From contig CAYUNM010000034.1 of NCBI GenBank assembly GCA_964446175.1, forward strand, positions 15,115-79,114: a stretch of 64,000 nt of DNA, given 5' to 3'. Both the position numbers and the translations under genes were made by a program. The DNA comes from an uncultured Kofleriaceae bacterium. GTDB lineage: Bacteria; Myxococcota_A; Polyangia; Haliangiales; Haliangiaceae. This document shows, one piece after another, positions 31,941 through 43,064 of this stretch. Numbering within the stretch: position 1 is the stretch's first letter; the number at the start of each line of letters is the position of its first letter. The notes under the pieces are model-generated. The model ran no database searches. It had not been told where the DNA came from and was given only the letters and a program-made list of their open reading frames with translations.

Positions 31941-33499
31941 GAGGCCTCGAGCTGCTTCGCGAGGCGCGTGACCTCACCGCGCGCGAGGCCGGCGTGGAAC
32001 ACCTGCTCGAGCGTCAGCCGCTCGCCGGAGACCATCTCGGTCGCGCCGAGGCGAACGACCCCATCCGTATCGATCGTCACCTCGACGAGGCACAGCACGT
32101 CGCCCGCCGGCGCGGGCGGCAGGTCGACGACCGCGTAGCGCCCGAGGTGCCGGTTCTGCGACGGATCCTGCGACTCGCCTTCCCACACGTCGAACTCGAG
32201 GCGCGCCTGCTCGTCGGTGCGCGTCGCGAGCAGGCGGTGCTCGCGCGTCGGCACGACCGCGCTCTGCGCGATCACCATCTCGCACTCGCCCTGCTGCACG
32301 CTCATCGAGAGGCCGCGCGCCGTGACGTCGATCAGCAGCACGCCCTCGATCGTGCCGTCGAGCCGCGCGACCTCGAGCGCCGCGCCGACCGCGACGACCT
32401 CCTCGGGGTTCGCGATCACGCTCGGCTCGCGGCCCGTGATCCGCGCCAGCTCCTTCTTCACGGCCGGCATGCGCGTGCTGCCGCCGACGAGCAGCACCTC
32501 CTCGATCTCCTCGCGCTTGCGGCCGCACCGGCGCAGCGCCTCCTTCACGGGCGGCTCGAGGCGCTTGACGAGCGGCGACGCCCACAGCTCGAGCTCGTCG
32601 CGCCGCACCGGGCGGGCGTAGTCGACGAGCTTGCCGCTCGGCAGCTCCGCGAGGCCTGCCACCGTGACCGTCGCGCTGCCGTGATCCGACAGCTCGTGCT
32701 TCGCGCGCTGCGCGGCGAGCCGCAGCTTCTCGATCGCGAACGCATCGGTCGAGACGTCGATGCCGCGCGTCTGCCGCACGTCGCGCACGAGGTGCTCGAC
32801 GATCGCGCGATCGACGTCGTCGCCGCCGAGGAACGGATCGCCGGTCGTCGCGAGCACCTCGAAGACGCCGGCCTCGACGTCGACGGCCGCGACGTCGAAC
32901 GTGCCGCCGCCGAGATCGCACACGAGGTAGCGACGATCCGCGCCGCGATGCGCGCCGTGGCCGAGCGCGGCCGCCGTCGGCTCGCTGATGAGCCGGATCA
33001 CCTGCAGCCCCGCGATCGCGGCCGCGTCTTTCGTCGCCTGGCGCTGCGCGGCGTCGTACCACGCGGGGATCGTGATCACCGCGCTCGTCACGGGAGCCTT
33101 GTAGAACCGCTCCGCCGTGCGCTTGAGCTCGCGGAGGATCAGCGCCGAGACCTCCTCGGGCGAGACGGCGCGGCCGTGCGCGAGCTGGATCCACGTGTCG
33201 CCGTTCGGCGCCTCGGTGATCTCGTACGGCAGGATGCGCGCGAGCTTCTTGATCTCGGGATGATCGAAGCGACGGCCGAGCAAACGCTTCGCGCCGAAGA
33301 TCGTCAGGTCCGGCGAGTGATCGAGCCCCTCGCGCGCCGCCTCGCCGACGACCGGCCCGTGTGGCGAGAACCACACGAGCGACGGCAGCGTCGTCGAGCC
33401 TTCCGCGGTCGTCAGGATGCGCGGCACGCCGTCGCGATCGATGACCGCGACGACCGAGTTCGTCGTGCCGAGATCGATGCCGACCGCGCGCGCGCTCAT
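31937..33499 (-). CDS. Hsp70 family ATPase, short form lacking the C-terminal lid (520 aa)
   Basis: VGIDLGTTNSVVAV, DLGGGTFDV, LVGGSTRMPAVK. Substrate-binding beta domain is present, the helical lid is absent. ATG at 33499. Confidence 0.88.
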   Translation of the reverse strand: MSARAVGIDLGTTNSVVAVIDRDGVPRILTTAEGSTTLPSLVWFSPHGPVVGEAAREGLDHSPDLTIFGAKRLLGRRFDHPEIKKLARILPYEITEAPNGDTWIQLAHGRAVSPEEVSALILRELKRTAERFYKAPVTSAVITIPAWYDAAQRQATKDAAAIAGLQVIRLISEPTAAALGHGAHRGADRRYLVCDLGGGTFDVAAVDVEAGVFEVLATTGDPFLGGDDVDRAIVEHLVRDVRQTRGIDVSTDAFAIEKLRLAAQRAKHELSDHGSATVTVAGLAELPSGKLVDYARPVRRDELELWASPLVKRLEPPVKEALRRCGRKREEIEEVLLVGGSTRMPAVKKELARITGREPSVIANPEEVVAVGAALEVARLDGTIEGVLLIDVTARGLSMSVQQGECEMVIAQSAVVPTREHRLLATRTDEQARLEFDVWEGESQDPSQNRHLGRYAVVDLPPAPAGDVLCLVEVTIDTDGVVRLGATEMVSGERLTLEQVFHAGLARGEVTRLAKQLEAS

Positions 33500-33575
33500 C
33501 GCGGGTCCTCGCTCCGCTCGGCCCGCGACGCAAGCCCACCCATCCCCAACACCCCGCAAGCTTCGCTTGCTCTCC
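33500..33575 (-). promoter_or_regulatory. 76-nt structured intercistronic element, copy A (between the J-domain gene stop and the Hsp70 start)
   Basis: Sense strand reads GGAGAGCAAGCGAAGCTTGCGGGGTGTTGGGGATGGGTGGGCTTGCGTCGCGGGCCGAGCGGAGCGAGGACCCGCG, flanked by TGA and ATG. About 88% identical to the copies at 39637 and 42560. Confidence 0.8.
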
Positions 33576-34694
33576 TCATTCGAACACCCGCTTCAGCCGC
33601 TCCGGGCTGCCCGCACCATGGCGGCGCACGTGCTCGAGCAGCCGCGACGCCTCGATGCAGTGCTCGTGGTGCGCGAGCGCGGTCTCGAGCTGCGTCGTCG
33701 CGAGCACGAGCTCGCCTTCCTGCAGCGCGGCGAGCGCCGTCGCGACGTAGTACAGCGAGCGCAGCGGCTTGCTGCGCGGATAGATCACGAGCGCGGCCGC
33801 GAGCACCTCGCGCGCCGCATTCGCGTCGCCCGTCCTGAGCTGCGCGCGCGCACGATGCTCGAAGGCCTCCGCACCCTGCGGCGGCGCGGCCGGCGGCGGC
33901 TGCGGCGCGACCGGCTGCGGCGTGGGCGGACGCTCGAAGCGGCGCGGCGCGGTCTTCGGCACCGGCGTCGCATCGCCGCTCTGGATGTCCTCGAAGCCGA
34001 CGAGCCAGCCCGGCGGCGTCGCGATCAGCGAGCCCGCCTTGATGCCCTCGCCCTTCGCCATCAGCGCGATGCGCAGCCGGTCGTACGCGCGGTTGCCGAG
34101 GATCGTCAGCTCCTCCGCGAGGTGCGTGATCGCGGGCGCACCCCGCCGCGCGACGAGATCCGGATGATGCCGCCGGATGTGCGCCTTCCAGCCGTCGCGC
34201 AGCTGCTCGGGCGTCGGATCGCGCGGCACGCCGAGCACCTCGTGCACGGCCGCGGTGCGCATGCGGCGCAGCTCGCTCGACAGCTGCTGGAACAGCGCGC
34301 GCTCGTCGGCCGGCAGCTCGTCGCCGCCCATCGCGCTCGACTTGCGCGTCGGCGCGGCGGGCACGGGAATCTGCGGATCCGTCTCGACGTCGTCGTTGCC
34401 GCGCGCGGCGAGGTTCTTGATCCGCGCCAGCGTCTCCTCGGTGAGCCCGGTGAGATCGACCTCGATCCACATGCGCTGCGCGTCGCCCTCGACCGGCGAG
34501 GCCCGCTGGATGACGCCGTCGATCGCGATCACCATCTCGTTCGGCAGCTCGAGCCCGAGCGTCACCGGCGAGCCGAGCTTGGCCTGGAACGGCACCTTCA
34601 TCGACAGCAGGCGTCCCTTGCGCAGCTTGCGCTTCGTGAACGTCTCGACCTGCTCCCAGGTCGCGCATCGCACGTGCAGCGTGCGTGCGGCCAC
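33576..34694 (-). CDS. PilZ-like beta-barrel / J-domain (HPD) / TPR-like co-chaperone
   Basis: The N-terminal about 95 aa resemble the myxobacterial PilZ-type domain (canonical RxxxR and DxSxxG motifs not evident). J domain VHEVLGVPRDPTPEQLRDGWKAHIRRHHPD. Helical-repeat C-terminus. GTG start abuts the upstream stop (TAGGTG). Confidence 0.7.
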   Translation of the reverse strand: MAARTLHVRCATWEQVETFTKRKLRKGRLLSMKVPFQAKLGSPVTLGLELPNEMVIAIDGVIQRASPVEGDAQRMWIEVDLTGLTEETLARIKNLAARGNDDVETDPQIPVPAAPTRKSSAMGGDELPADERALFQQLSSELRRMRTAAVHEVLGVPRDPTPEQLRDGWKAHIRRHHPDLVARRGAPAITHLAEELTILGNRAYDRLRIALMAKGEGIKAGSLIATPPGWLVGFEDIQSGDATPVPKTAPRRFERPPTPQPVAPQPPPAAPPQGAEAFEHRARAQLRTGDANAAREVLAAALVIYPRSKPLRSLYYVATALAALQEGELVLATTQLETALAHHEHCIEASRLLEHVRRHGAGSPERLKRVFE

Positions 34695-38848: not shown

Positions 38849-39636
38849 CCGCGCTCGTCCAGCGCCGCGACTACCTCGAAGGCCAGCGCCGCACGATCAT
38901 CGCGCGCGCGCTGCTCGGGAGCCTCGCCGGGACGATTCCGCTGCCGTTCGTCGACGACTGGGCGATCGAGCGCATCCTCGGCGGCGGCTACCGCCGGATC
39001 GCGGCCGCGCACCACGTCGATCTGACCGACGAGGCCGTCGCGGCGCTCGTCCACGGGCCGGGCAAGGCGCCGTCGATCACGGAGATGGCGGCCGGCGGCA
39101 TCCTGATGCGCGTCGCCGGCCGCGCGGCGAAGAAGATGATGGTCGCGCTCGCGACGATCAACCGCGCGCGCTCGGCGGCCCGCACGTTCACGGCGATGAC
39201 GCTGTTCGATCACTACTGCGCGAAGCTCCACCGCGGCCTCGCGCTCGATGCGCCCACCGCGCTCGCGCTCCGCGAGGAGATCGCGCGCTCGATCGACAAC
39301 ACGCCCGGCGCGCTCGTCTTCCATCCGTTCCGCCGCGGCGTGCTCGCGGCCGCTCGCGCGACGGTCAAGGCGCCGCTCGAGCTCGCCGACCTCGCGACCG
39401 GAGGCCGCGTGCGCAAGCTGCTCGCGAGCAAGAACGACGTGCACGATCCCGAGCACGTCGGCGACCTCGAGCAGGTGATGGATGCCGCGCTCGCGGATAA
39501 AGACGGGTTCCTCGCGCGCACGGTGACCGCCGTCGAGGTCCAGCTGTCGAGCGAGGTCAACCCGTACCTCGATGCCGCGCTCGACTCGCTCGATCGCCGG
39601 TGGCGCGCGCGGATCGCGGCAGGCGTCGTGAAATGA
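38845..39636 (+). CDS. Hypothetical protein (263 aa), weakly DUF697-like N-terminus
   Basis: ATGA overlap with the upstream gene. IIARALLGSLAGTIPLPFVDDWAIERILGGGYRRIAAAH resembles the DUF697 pattern (low confidence). High GC3. Confidence 0.55.
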   Translation: MTALVQRRDYLEGQRRTIIARALLGSLAGTIPLPFVDDWAIERILGGGYRRIAAAHHVDLTDEAVAALVHGPGKAPSITEMAAGGILMRVAGRAAKKMMVALATINRARSAARTFTAMTLFDHYCAKLHRGLALDAPTALALREEIARSIDNTPGALVFHPFRRGVLAAARATVKAPLELADLATGGRVRKLLASKNDVHDPEHVGDLEQVMDAALADKDGFLARTVTAVEVQLSSEVNPYLDAALDSLDRRWRARIAAGVVK

Positions 39637-39712
39637 GGAGAGCAAACGAAGTTTGCGGGGTGTCGGGGCTGGGTGGGCTTGCATCACGGGCCGAGCGAAG
39701 CGAGGACCCGGG
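39637..39712 (+). promoter_or_regulatory. 76-nt structured intercistronic element, copy B (immediately upstream of proB)
   Basis: GGAGAGCAAACGAAGTTTGCGGGGTGTCGGGGCTGGGTGGGCTTGCATCACGGGCCGAGCGAAGCGAGGACCCGGG between TGA (39634-39636) and ATG (39713). Confidence 0.8.
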
Positions 39713-40800
39713 ATGACGGAGCGCGAGCAGCTACGCGCGAGCAAGCGCGTCGTCATCAAGATCGGCAGCCGGCTGCTCGCGGAGGCGCCCGCGAGCCGGC
39801 CCGCCGTGATCGCGGACCAGATCGTCGCGCTGCGTGCGAAGGGTATCGAGGTGCTCGTCGTGTCGTCGGGCGCGATCGCGCTCGGCATGCGGCGCCTCGG
39901 TCTCGCGGCGCGGCCGACGGAGATGCCGGCACTCCAGGCGGCCGCCGCCGTCGGGCAGTCGCGGCTGATGCAGCACTGGGAGCACGCGTTCGGCGCGCAC
40001 GAGGTCGAGATCGGGCAGGTCCTGCTGACGCACGACGACCTCGGGGATCGCCGGCGCTTCCTCTCGGCGCGGCTGACGCTGCGCGCGCTGCTCGATGCGC
40101 AGTGCGTGCCGATCATCAACGAGAACGACACGGTCGCGACCGAGGAGATCAAGTTCGGCGATAACGATCAGCTCGCCGCGCTCGTCTGCAACCTCGTCAG
40201 CGCGGACTGCCTCGTGATCCTCACCGACGTCGAGGGCGTGCGCGGCGCGGACGGCGTGCGGATGCCGATCGTGCGCGACATCGATCGCGAGGCGGTGCCC
40301 GTCGCGGGCGGCTCGACGAGCGGCGTCGGCTCGGGCGGCATGGCGAGCAAGGTCGGATCCGCGCGCATCGTCACGCGGACCGGCGTCGCGGCCGTGGTCG
40401 CCCCGGGGCGCGAGCCCGACGTGCTCGTGCGCGTGCTCGCCGGCGACGACCTCGGCACGCTGTTCGTGCCGGCGAGCAAGCTGTCGAGCCGCAAGCACTG
40501 GATCGCCTACGGCGCGAAGCCCGCCGGCAAGCTGACGATCGACGACGGCGCGGCTCGCGCGCTGCGCGACGGCGGCAAGTCCCTGCTCCCGGCCGGCATC
40601 GTTTCGGTCGACGGGGACTTCGAGCTCGGCGACACCGTGTCGATCCTGACTCGCGACGGTCACGAATTCGCCCGTGGTCTCGCGGCCTACGGTGGGGCGG
40701 ATCTGCGCAAGATCCAGGGCTTGCAATCCGCCGGCATCGAGGCCAGGCTGGGATACAAAGGCATCGACGAAGCAATCCACCGGGATGATCTCGTGATCTT

Positions 40801-42073: not shown

Positions 42074-42559
42074 ATGACCAAAGCGAAGAAGCACGCCCCG
42101 CCCCAACCGCCCAAAGCGCGCGGCCGCGCCAACGAGACGCCCGACGCGACGCAGACGTCGACCGAAGGCCTCGACGGTGCGATGCGCGCGCTCGCGATCG
42201 CGCTGGACAAGAAGGCCCTCGAGCCGATCCTGCTCGACGTCCGCCAGCTGTGCTCGTTCTGCAACTACCAGCTGGTGCTGTCGGGCCGCTCGGACCGCCA
42301 GGTCGACGCGATCGCCGACGGCATCGAGCTCGCGCTCAAGCAAGAAGGCTTGCGCCCGATCTCGACGGAAGGCGCGCGCAGCGGCCAGTGGGCACTGCTC
42401 GACTACGGCGACTTCGTCGTGCACGTGTTCCTGCACTCGGCGCGCGAGCACTACGATCTCGAAGGCCTGTGGAACGATGCGCCGCGCGTGCCGATCGACG
42501 TGCCCGCCGAGGCGCGCGTGCCGGTCGACGATCAGTACGACGCGTCGTTCGTCTCGTGA
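42074..42559 (+). CDS. rsfS: Ribosome silencing factor RsfS (iojap-like) with an N-terminal basic extension
   Basis: ILLDVRQLCSFCNYQLVLSGRSDRQVDAIADGI...WALLDYGDFVVHVFLHSAREHYDLEGLW. Confidence 0.88.
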   Translation: MTKAKKHAPPQPPKARGRANETPDATQTSTEGLDGAMRALAIALDKKALEPILLDVRQLCSFCNYQLVLSGRSDRQVDAIADGIELALKQEGLRPISTEGARSGQWALLDYGDFVVHVFLHSAREHYDLEGLWNDAPRVPIDVPAEARVPVDDQYDASFVS

Positions 42560-42635
42560 GGAGAGCAACCGAAGGTTGCGGGGTGTTGGGGTTGGGTGGG
42601 CTTGCACAACGGGCCGAGCGAAGCGAGGACCCGGA
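42560..42635 (+). promoter_or_regulatory. 76-nt structured intercistronic element, copy C (between rsfS and rlmH)
   Basis: GGAGAGCAACCGAAGGTTGCGGGGTGTTGGGGTTGGGTGGGCTTGCACAACGGGCCGAGCGAAGCGAGGACCCGGA between TGA (42557-42559) and GTG (42636). Confidence 0.8.
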
Positions 42636-43064
42636 GTGAAGATCTTCGTGGCGGCCATCGGCCGCCTCAAAGAACAGTACCTGCACGCGGCGGAGGCCGA
42701 GTACACCAAGCGTCTCCGCCCGTACTGCACGCTGAAGGTCGACGAGCACGAGTCGGAGGCCGCGCTGCTGAAGTCTCTCCCCGGCACCGCGCACCTCTAC
42801 GCGTTCGACGAGCGCGGCGAGCAGCTCTCGTCGCAGCAGTTCGCCGAGCTGCTAGCCGCCGAGGCCTCGCACGGCGGCGGCGCGCCCGTCGTGTTCGCGA
42901 TCGGCGGCGCCGACGGCCACAGCGACGAGCTACGCAAGCGCGCGCGCAAGCTGATCGCGTTCGGCCGGCTGACGATCGCGCACCGCCTCGTACGGATCCT
43001 CGTGCTCGAGCAGGTCTATCGCGGCTTCAAGATCCTCAAGGGCGAGCCGTATCACCGCGAGTGA
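42636..43064 (+). CDS. rlmH: 23S rRNA (pseudouridine1915-N3)-methyltransferase
   Basis: GTG start giving (M)KIFVAAIGRLKEQYL...FAIGGADGHSDELRKRA...LTIAHRLVRILVLEQVYRGFKILKGEPYH, a SPOUT/RlmH pattern. Confidence 0.88.
   Translation: MKIFVAAIGRLKEQYLHAAEAEYTKRLRPYCTLKVDEHESEAALLKSLPGTAHLYAFDERGEQLSSQQFAELLAAEASHGGGAPVVFAIGGADGHSDELRKRARKLIAFGRLTIAHRLVRILVLEQVYRGFKILKGEPYHRE

Follow-up and report, generated by a model that had tools for sequence, protein, structure and literature searches.

The described systems closest to the repeat reported here are the IS200/IS605 miniature elements, the REP/RAYT systems, the Rickettsia palindromic elements (RPEs), the mycobacterial MIRUs and the G-rich repeats of Xanthomonas and Nostoc. 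Elements of the IS200/IS605 and REP/RAYT types are mobilised by Y1 HUH transposases in a process that takes place on single strands and is guided by hairpins. The RPEs are located inside genes, where they add peptide segments to the encoded proteins. The MIRUs are mobile, insert at start codons and contain an internal ORF coupled at -4 nt spacing, according to the passage that cites Supply et al. 1997 in a 2025 review of translational coupling (PMC12548453). The G-rich repeats of Xanthomonas (GGGAATC) and Nostoc are quadruplex-forming tandem heptamer microsatellites with a variable number of units (Rehm et al. 2015, PMC4692102).

The window (the whole stretch of DNA analysed, 64,000 nucleotides) contains three copies of a repeat whose centre is the motif GGGGTGT(T/C)GGGG(T/C/A)TGGGTGGG, and their coordinates are collected in Table 1. 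A 26-nt degenerate pattern allowing up to 3 mismatches gave exactly 3 matches in the window and none in 100 shuffles. A sequence-only reading of this DNA had placed a four-tract G-quadruplex (G4) motif on the transcribed strand; the motif is indeed there, on the sense strand of the flanking genes. All three copies present four runs of at least 3 G with loops of 1-7 nt, which is the canonical definition used throughout. The 14 tract guanines are identical in the three copies and the substitutions are confined to the loops, as had been claimed, at two positions (T/C/T and T/C/A, in loop 1 and loop 2). The location described for the motif, between two hairpins and about 35 nt before a start codon, was likewise confirmed: the distance is 35 nt in each copy and the hairpins show strong covariation. 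When G4 energies are included in ViennaRNA, most copies have a quadruplex in their minimum-energy fold, which is 8-14 kcal/mol more stable than the best non-G4 fold; the quadruplex is compatible with both hairpins in one predicted fold. The predicted energies with and without G4 are -38.9 and -30.3 kcal/mol for copy A, -37.0 and -28.0 for copy B, and -45.3 and -31.7 for copy C.

Table 1. Coordinates of the three repeat copies and of their parts in the window
Feature	Position	Strand	Remarks
Copy A, 84-nt repeat, GTGA to GTGA	42556..42639	+	between rsfS (stop TGA 42557-42559) and rlmH (start GTG 42636)
Copy A, mini-ORF, 27 codons	42556 to 42639	+	reading frame through the element
Copy A, hairpin 1, GCAACC-GAA-GGTTGC, 6-bp stem, GNA triloop	42565..42579	+	covariation
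Copy A, G4 motif, GGGG TGTT GGGG TT GGG T GGG (GGGGTGTTGGGGTTGGGTGGG), G/T-only spacer	42580..42600	+	mini-ORF codons 9-15
Copy A, GGGTGGGCTTG, tracts 3-4 plus CTTG	42594..42604	+	block of highest conservation in the family, adjoining hairpin 2 on its 5' side
Copy A, hairpin 2, 15-pair stem, bulged A, GAA triloop	42605..42638	+	covariation
Copy A, SD-like GAGGA	42626-42630	+	in the 3' arm of hairpin 2
Copy A, rlmH start GTG	42636-42638	+	pairs with CAC 42605-42607 in hairpin 2
Copy B, ATGA to ATGA	39633..39716	+	between a 263-aa ORF (stop 39634-39636) and proB (ATG 39713)
Copy B, hairpin 1	39642-39656	+	
Copy B, G4 motif, GGGGTGTCGGGGCTGGGTGGG	39657-39677	+	
Copy B, hairpin 2	39682-39715	+	
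Copy C, ATGA (33579-33576) to ATGA (33499-33496)	33496..33579	-	between a J-domain protein gene and a Hsp70-type gene (ATG 33499)
Copy C, hairpin 1	33570-33556	-	
Copy C, G4 motif, GGGGTGTTGGGGATGGGTGGG	33555-33535	-	
Copy C, hairpin 2	33530-33497	-	

The motif is the G/T-only central spacer of a dispersed repeat, 84 nt long in the window and ~81-84 nt across the family. The assembly searched comprises 8.04 Mb (70% GC) in 99 contigs; two nhmmer rounds identified 34 copies in it and a covariance model 35, and the 3' hairpin used alone as query retrieved ~25 full elements. Every copy is solitary, the closest two being ~2 kb apart. Carriers were identified among public genomes with the pattern GGGYGGGCTTGY-N13-CGNAG, the loci being re-scored by the covariance model. 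They are two sister genomes, G047 and G048 (Deltaproteobacteria bacterium CP_BM_ER_6 and Kofleriaceae bacterium SMAG_U5072 by their record titles), with at least 22 and at least 4 copies, respectively, among the matches listed. The 60-copy set used below is formed by 34 copies from this genome, 22 from G047 and 4 from G048. Of 40 relatives scanned with the covariance model, 24 of them congeneric species, none yielded a copy, and no Rfam family was matched in a gathering scan of the window or in a sensitive scan of copy A.

The consensus is RTGA-GGAGAGC, hairpin 1 (GCRAnC-GAA-Gn'YYGC), CGGGGTGTTGGGGTTGGGTGGGCTTG, hairpin 2 and a terminal RTGA, so that the order from 5' to 3' is AGGAGAG, hairpin 1, the four-tract spacer and the long hairpin 2. 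Both hairpins are supported by covariation, with changes on both sides in 15 of the 21 pairs, and 83% of the cells are paired, versus 70% when shuffled and ~30% when the partners are slid. In hairpin 1 four of the six pairs have changed on both sides, and the fifth is G-C, A-U or C-G depending on the copy. Family-wide, hairpin 2 has a 15-pair stem with a bulged A and a GNA triloop; 11 of its 15 pairs have changed on both sides and 87% of its cells are paired. Its 3' arm carries GAGGA, a 6-nt spacer and the RTG start of the downstream gene, and the opposite CAY covaries with this start (ATG with CAT, GTG with CAC), with wobbles in some copies (U-G in 6, G-U in 4). Compensatory hairpin changes that arose in place were identified in orthologous copies. 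Directly 5' of hairpin 2 the block GGGYGGGCTTG is found in 33 of the 34 copies of this genome (the exception reads CTCG), which account for 33 of its 39 genomic occurrences. A long-range helix between the 5' arm of hairpin 1 and GCTTGC, present in some minimum-energy folds, was discarded; the covarying fifth position tracks the local hairpin 1 instead.

Two loci of this genome present parts of the repeat in other arrangements. C48:35792 is a short relative without hairpin 1 and the G-run (ATGAGGGCAAGCCGAGCGCAGCGAGGACTTGCTCCGAGG), and at C8:165949 two tandem ACGAGCGAAGCGAGC mini-hairpins adjoin a tRNA gene. A wider superfamily of repeats may be built around the GAGCGNAGCGAG hairpin.

The sites occupied in the window are empty elsewhere. 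In ~20 genomes of the same genus rsfS and rlmH share a plain GTGA overlap (...gtctcGTGAAGATC, with the empty junction ...cgtctcGTGA|AGATC), and the site is also empty in G047; in this genome 80 nt ending in GTGA are placed after the TGA of rsfS. In G047 and G048 alike, each of the three window sites is an empty RTGA overlap of stop and start, reading in G047 ...atcaaGTGA|CCGAAC at the site of copy B and ...ttcacATGA|GCAAGG at that of copy C. The G047 flanks of the window sites are 87-90% identical to those of this genome, the overall range for flanks being 82-94%. Among the matches listed, 4-5 sites are filled in both this genome and G047, and at least 12 copies of G047 have empty counterpart sites here. 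Since their sites are empty in G047 and G048, the window copies are insertions younger than the split from the sister (~10% DNA divergence), and the simplest reason for the identity of their G-tracts is recent insertion from a common origin.

Pairs of empty and filled sites locate the point of insertion: CGGTGATAC versus cggTGA[GGAGAG...GGGATGA]tat, GCGCATGCAAGTC versus gcgcATG[CGGAGAACC...GAGATG]GACGTC, and GGGGTGGTAC versus ccggTG[AGGAGAG...CCGGTG]GTAC. These junctions indicate that the point of insertion lies immediately 3' of a start codon's (R)TG and that the element brings its own RTG; a 2-4-nt duplication would also fit them. The orientation of insertion is sense, and the target is most often an RTGA stop/start overlap.

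Some loci depart from a simple presence or absence. At the rsfS-rlmH junction of G048 (contig C188, locus L242) the sequence reads ...gtcgTAAGCGAGGACCCGACGTGAagatc, where the 11-mer GCGAGGACCCG, a spacer and GTGA are identical to the SD-like box and start with which the element terminates at its 3' side; they look like either what is left of an earlier insertion here, now possibly serving as ribosome-binding site, or an independent hit at this site. In the orthologous pair C2:58039 (this genome) and L217 (G047) the 3' two-thirds are nearly identical and the 5' third differs (GGTTTCGCGAGCGCAGCGAG vs GGAGAGCAAACGAAGTTTGC), a mosaic suggestive of gene conversion between copies or of a renewed insertion at this locus. 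The element at L231 of G047 is full; its counterpart in this genome (C2:55872-55948) keeps the 3' half, the G-run region being replaced by CCCGCCCGCCGAGTAGGCGGGC.

A conserved cis-regulatory RNA or leader was considered and rejected, given the 0 copies in 40 relatives, the empty sister sites, the unrelated downstream genes and the lack of any Rfam match.

A reading frame runs through the element. Its 5' RTG overlaps the TGA of the upstream gene, and most copies open 26-28 codons that end in a TGA overlapping the downstream RTG; the full arrangement, RTGA to RTGA with 26-28 open codons, was identified in ~20 copies. The frame is kept in ~24 of the 34 copies and is broken or shifted in about one quarter. 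Indels preserve the frame by being single changes of -3, -9 or +3 nt or paired +1/-1 changes. One orthologous pair differs by two mutually cancelling indels and another by a single frame-breaking one, and a +2 subfamily has its stop (TGA or TAA) 1 nt before the start. A long ORF with high third-codon-position GC (GC3) terminates at the 5' TGA of 26 copies, and one begins at the 3' RTG of ~24. In ten downstream proteins the Pfam matches begin at residues 1-11, which confirms the downstream starts; the products are IGPS, a protein kinase, an ABC ATPase, URO-D, PGK, a nucleotidyl transferase, an amidohydrolase, a VWA protein, a methyltransferase and a hydrolase. The downstream genes are functionally unrelated and comprise trpC, pgk, hemE, kinases, an ABC ATPase, rlmH, proB and Hsp70. 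The spacer is read in three different frames by different subfamilies; its conservation is therefore not a protein constraint, and protein-coding constraint on the G-run was ruled out.

Two subfamilies depart from the common arrangement at their ends. The one with a ATGCGGAGAGCC start comprises C5:122326, C14:123412, C54:3533, C51:10644 and C66:17823 in this genome and L230 in G047, whose empty site in this genome reads ...CTATTTTCCGGCGCATG|CAAGTC. A -10-like hexamer (TAGAAT, TAGCAT, TATGCT, TATATT or TACTGT) precedes the RTG by 6-7 nt, and the stop (TGA or TAA) lies 1 nt before the start of the gene. To judge from these letters, its members seem to be inserted at the start codons of leaderless genes, in which case the mini-ORF would itself be leaderless. 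The other subfamily has a different 3' end (...GGACCCGGTCCGAGG...) and was identified at C56:51791, C3:292834, C43:37828 and C62:35862, and also at C97:2741, all in this genome. The ORFs into which its frame continues are 185 to >500 aa long and carry sequences resembling signal peptides or lipoboxes (e.g. ...RGPGPRWLVLLALVAC), and this subfamily appears to encode an N-terminal extension of putative secreted proteins. A second G4 motif, GGGCGGGCTTGCGGGGCGGG, arises in it as well.

The three window copies say little about selection on the motif. About 13 of the 84 element positions vary among them; the probability of zero change at the 14 tract sites is ~0.095 and that of both variable sites falling within the 7 loop positions of the 21 is 0.10. 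Loop-only variation among three copies, the main argument of the sequence-only reading, is weak evidence (p ~0.1). That reading had also assumed that G-runs and G4 motifs are common at 70% GC, which the census contradicts: only 307 canonical motifs were identified in the 8.04 Mb, both strands included. Of these, 26 lie inside elements, all 26 on the sense strand, so the elements hold 8.5% of the G4 motifs of the genome in 0.04% of its DNA. Since such motifs are rare genome-wide, the one in the element is no by-product of GC content.

Across the 60 copies the differences from consensus amount to 5.4% of the tract cells versus 23.8% of the loop cells. For the 34 copies of this genome analysed by themselves, the values are 4.8% for the tracts, 24% for the loops and 20% for the other consensus guanines of the element (Mann-Whitney U, p = 0.0014 for tracts versus loops and p = 0.003 for tracts versus other guanines). 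Within the 60-copy set the contrast is present in this genome (5.5% vs 25.6%), in G047 (2.6% vs 13.6%) and in G048 (19.6% vs 64%). Thus tract changes in the family are 4-5 times rarer than loop changes; equal frequencies, the outcome that the sequence-only reading had named as contrary to it, are not observed. The contrast between tracts and loops is present at the scale of the family, and the identity within the window is explained by recent insertion. The invariance of the tracts, true of the three window copies, does not extend to the family, where tract changes occur and 20 of the 60 copies are without a canonical motif.

The canonical motif is found at the central place in 24 of 34 copies of this genome, 16 of 22 in G047 and none of the 4 in G048, the more distant of the two sisters. 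This retention (40 of 60) compares with ~5-15% expected if the tracts varied like the loops or like the element average. Highly diverged subfamilies still present four G-tracts, and in some copies, e.g. C35 and C9_159476, the register of the tracts is shifted with four runs kept. Several copies have lost the motif despite intact hairpins and frame (C8, C19, C94, C1_334157 and C3_57214), the last by a 9-nt deletion in the spacer. No significant relation between loss of the motif and overall decay of the copy was detected (p = 0.13); pure decay and strict retention of the motif are both unsupported by this value. The form GGTGG of tract 2 is present in at least three sub-lineages (7 copies), and sources without a canonical tract 2 therefore apparently still spread. 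In the same tract, of four G, the inner guanines have changed 16 times and the edge ones 4 times, whereas a three-tetrad quadruplex would lead to the reverse expectation. The spacer substitutions are mostly exchanges between G and T (T>G 51, T>A 23, T>C 19, G>T 22, G>C 15 and G>A 3), and transitions are rare. A quadruplex accounts for this spectrum no better than do slippage or oxidative damage in a G/T run, or selection for a G/U-only composition that avoids stops and self-pairing. Among four orthologous pairs, 4 of 56 tract sites and 4 of 28 loop sites have changed, a difference without statistical significance.

Within this genome, none of the 204 cells of tracts 3-4 has changed, versus 26 of 272 (9.6%) in tracts 1-2. 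The invariant GGGYGGGCTTG extends past the last tract and weakly suggests a sequence-specific role beside hairpin 2, an argument that is weak because the asymmetry is absent from G047 and G048. For the same reason the asymmetry was set aside as proof of a sequence motif over a quadruplex. As a whole, some constraint on the G-tracts is real across the family and acts on the element itself; a quadruplex is a possible target of selection. The G4 potential is genuine, and the interpretation as a selected quadruplex is partly supported.

The explanation that we consider probable makes the G-tract segment the central spacer of a mobile repeat of ~81-84 nt, young and restricted to one lineage, that works as a translated mini-cistron. 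In most copies the old start codon opens a 26-27-codon frame through the element, with a TGA overlapping the new start. Ribosomes translating this mini-ORF would then melt hairpin 2 and re-initiate on the downstream gene, and the insertion would be tolerated because they do so. The window copies would share their G-tracts as recent insertions from related source copies. The constraint on the tracts could come from the GGGYGGGCTTG block, from a non-pairing, stop-avoiding G/U composition or from a quadruplex fold, and the canonical quadruplex would be dispensable for the persistence of a copy.

Set against this mini-cistron explanation, the contrast between tracts and loops in three genomes is exactly what a selected quadruplex predicts, and the ~4-fold higher conservation of tract guanines relative to the other guanines of the element goes beyond mere descent. 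A folded quadruplex maintained by selection for the benefit of the element itself is possible, but we consider it doubtful in either of its forms. In a single-stranded DNA transposition intermediate it would stand between two d(GCGNAGC)-type mini-hairpins; in RNA it would be a lock against mispairing, keeping the G-runs off the C-rich arm of hairpin 2. The conservation of all four tracts relative to the loops in three genomes, the retention far above expectation and the register shifts that keep four runs agree with it, whereas the canonical motif is missing in one third of the 60 copies, GGTGG recurs in at least three sub-lineages, the inner guanines of tract 2 change more than the edge ones and one copy lacks 9 nt of the spacer with frame and hairpins kept. 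The predicted gain of 8-14 kcal/mol in a fold that coexists with both hairpins is also in its favour, as is the closing of both hairpins by C-GNA-G triloops with tandem G.A pairs, a combination characteristic of highly stable mini-hairpins in DNA. The 37 Y1_Tnp matches of this genome (see below) are possible mobilisers, but all lie more than 3.8 kb from the copies. A combined version, in which the quadruplex is a working part of the translated mobile mini-cistron, is a little less credible still and we regard it as unlikely. It would be either a K+- or temperature-tunable coupling valve in >30 operons, the RNA quadruplex standing in the path of the ribosomes that open the hairpin occluding SD and start, or part of the single-stranded transposition intermediate between the d(GCGNAGC) mini-hairpins.

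The proposal of the sequence-only reading that a quadruplex in RNA or non-template DNA acts as a cation- or temperature-sensitive roadblock, regulating the downstream genes for the benefit of the host, is improbable. The motif does lie on the sense strand in 26 of 26 cases, inside the mini-ORF and upstream of a hairpin that occludes SD and start, where it could slow the ribosomes opening that hairpin, and its tracts are more conserved than its loops. However, the downstream genes are unrelated and the insertions recent, and the absence of the element from the same sites in sister species means that these genes function without it. One third of the copies have lost the motif with no other sign of decay there, and RNA quadruplexes are reportedly largely unfolded or depleted in bacteria (Guo and Bartel 2016). 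A gene-specific regulatory switch evolved for the downstream genes, sensing cations or temperature, is unlikely because the genes are unrelated and lack the element in sister species. At the other extreme, the pattern could reflect no constraint at all, just chance, base composition and shared ancestry. This is very improbable: it accounts for the non-significant result in the window copies alone (p ~0.1), is in line with the youth of the copies and could attribute the G/T exchanges (T>G 51, G>T 22, G>A 3) to slippage or oxidative damage, but it is opposed by the rarity of canonical motifs in the genome, by tract guanines 4 times more conserved than the other guanines of the element (p = 0.003) and by the repetition of the tract/loop contrast in three genomes.

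Candidates for the mobilisation of the repeat were sought in the same assembly. Y1_Tnp (PF01797, IS200-/RAYT-like) gave 37 weak matches, all above threshold, in ORFs of 185-830 aa. The set is unusually large and paralogous, and one member (C34:13698-13898) is located just upstream of the window. None of the 37 is within 3.8 kb of any copy in this genome, and the genome-wide search for copies gave no longer element bounded by the same ends. A link of the element to the Y1 transposases was not retained, none of the PF01797 matches being adjacent to a copy.

If the G-tracts work as a fold, the element would be a rare case of a bacterial quadruplex multiplied by a mobile element inside a translated coupling cistron, and the genome supplies a natural series of mutants, with copies carrying GGTGG, GTGG or deleted tracts. 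In the single-stranded form, the quadruplex would belong to the transposition intermediate of an undescribed start-codon-targeting element. The G4 census of the genome is strongly shaped by this one element, and apparent conservation of a G4 motif among a handful of copies within one genome can simply mean that the repeat is young. The element also brings MIRU-type behaviour, in which a repeat with a coupled mini-ORF inserts at start codons, to a myxobacterium-like lineage, and its covariation-supported hairpins, a difference from MIRUs, make the mechanism of coupling directly testable.

Among the known systems, the Xanthomonas and Nostoc repeats resemble the element in being abundant, G4-capable and transcribed, in lying mostly between co-directional ORFs and in their bias to four tracts (PMC4692102). 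They differ in structure, since a single four-tract spacer is here enclosed in a complex 84-nt element with hairpins and an ORF. With the RPEs it shares the character of a selfish hairpin repeat that survives by being in frame and translated, a translation that is predicted here; unlike them, it forms a separate coupled mini-cistron, with the exception of one subfamily fused to signal peptides. The likeness to the IS200/IS605 miniature elements and REP/RAYT comprises hairpins near both ends with the shared core GAGCGNAGCGAG, strand-specific insertion, apparently directly 3' of (R)TG, with the element ending in the same letters, and the many Y1_Tnp-like genes (37) of this genome. The differences are that no transposase gene is adjacent to or bounded by the element and that the lower stem of hairpin 2 contains U-G and G-U wobbles and the start codon, which points to a role at the RNA level too.

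By analogy, the behaviour of the element matches best that of the mycobacterial MIRUs. Both are short dispersed repeats, apparently mobile, located in sense orientation between co-directional genes; both insert at start codons, and in the present case related genomes differ in which sites are filled; and both contain a small ORF whose start overlaps the upstream stop and which shares a 4-nt RTGA overlap with the downstream gene. The copies reported here are solitary, unlike the tandem arrays of variable number known for MIRUs, and they have two covarying hairpins, one of them occluding SD and start, as well as a G4-motif spacer, features that to our knowledge have not been described for MIRUs. 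The host here is an uncultured myxobacterium-like lineage; the hosts are unrelated and the likeness is one of behaviour only.
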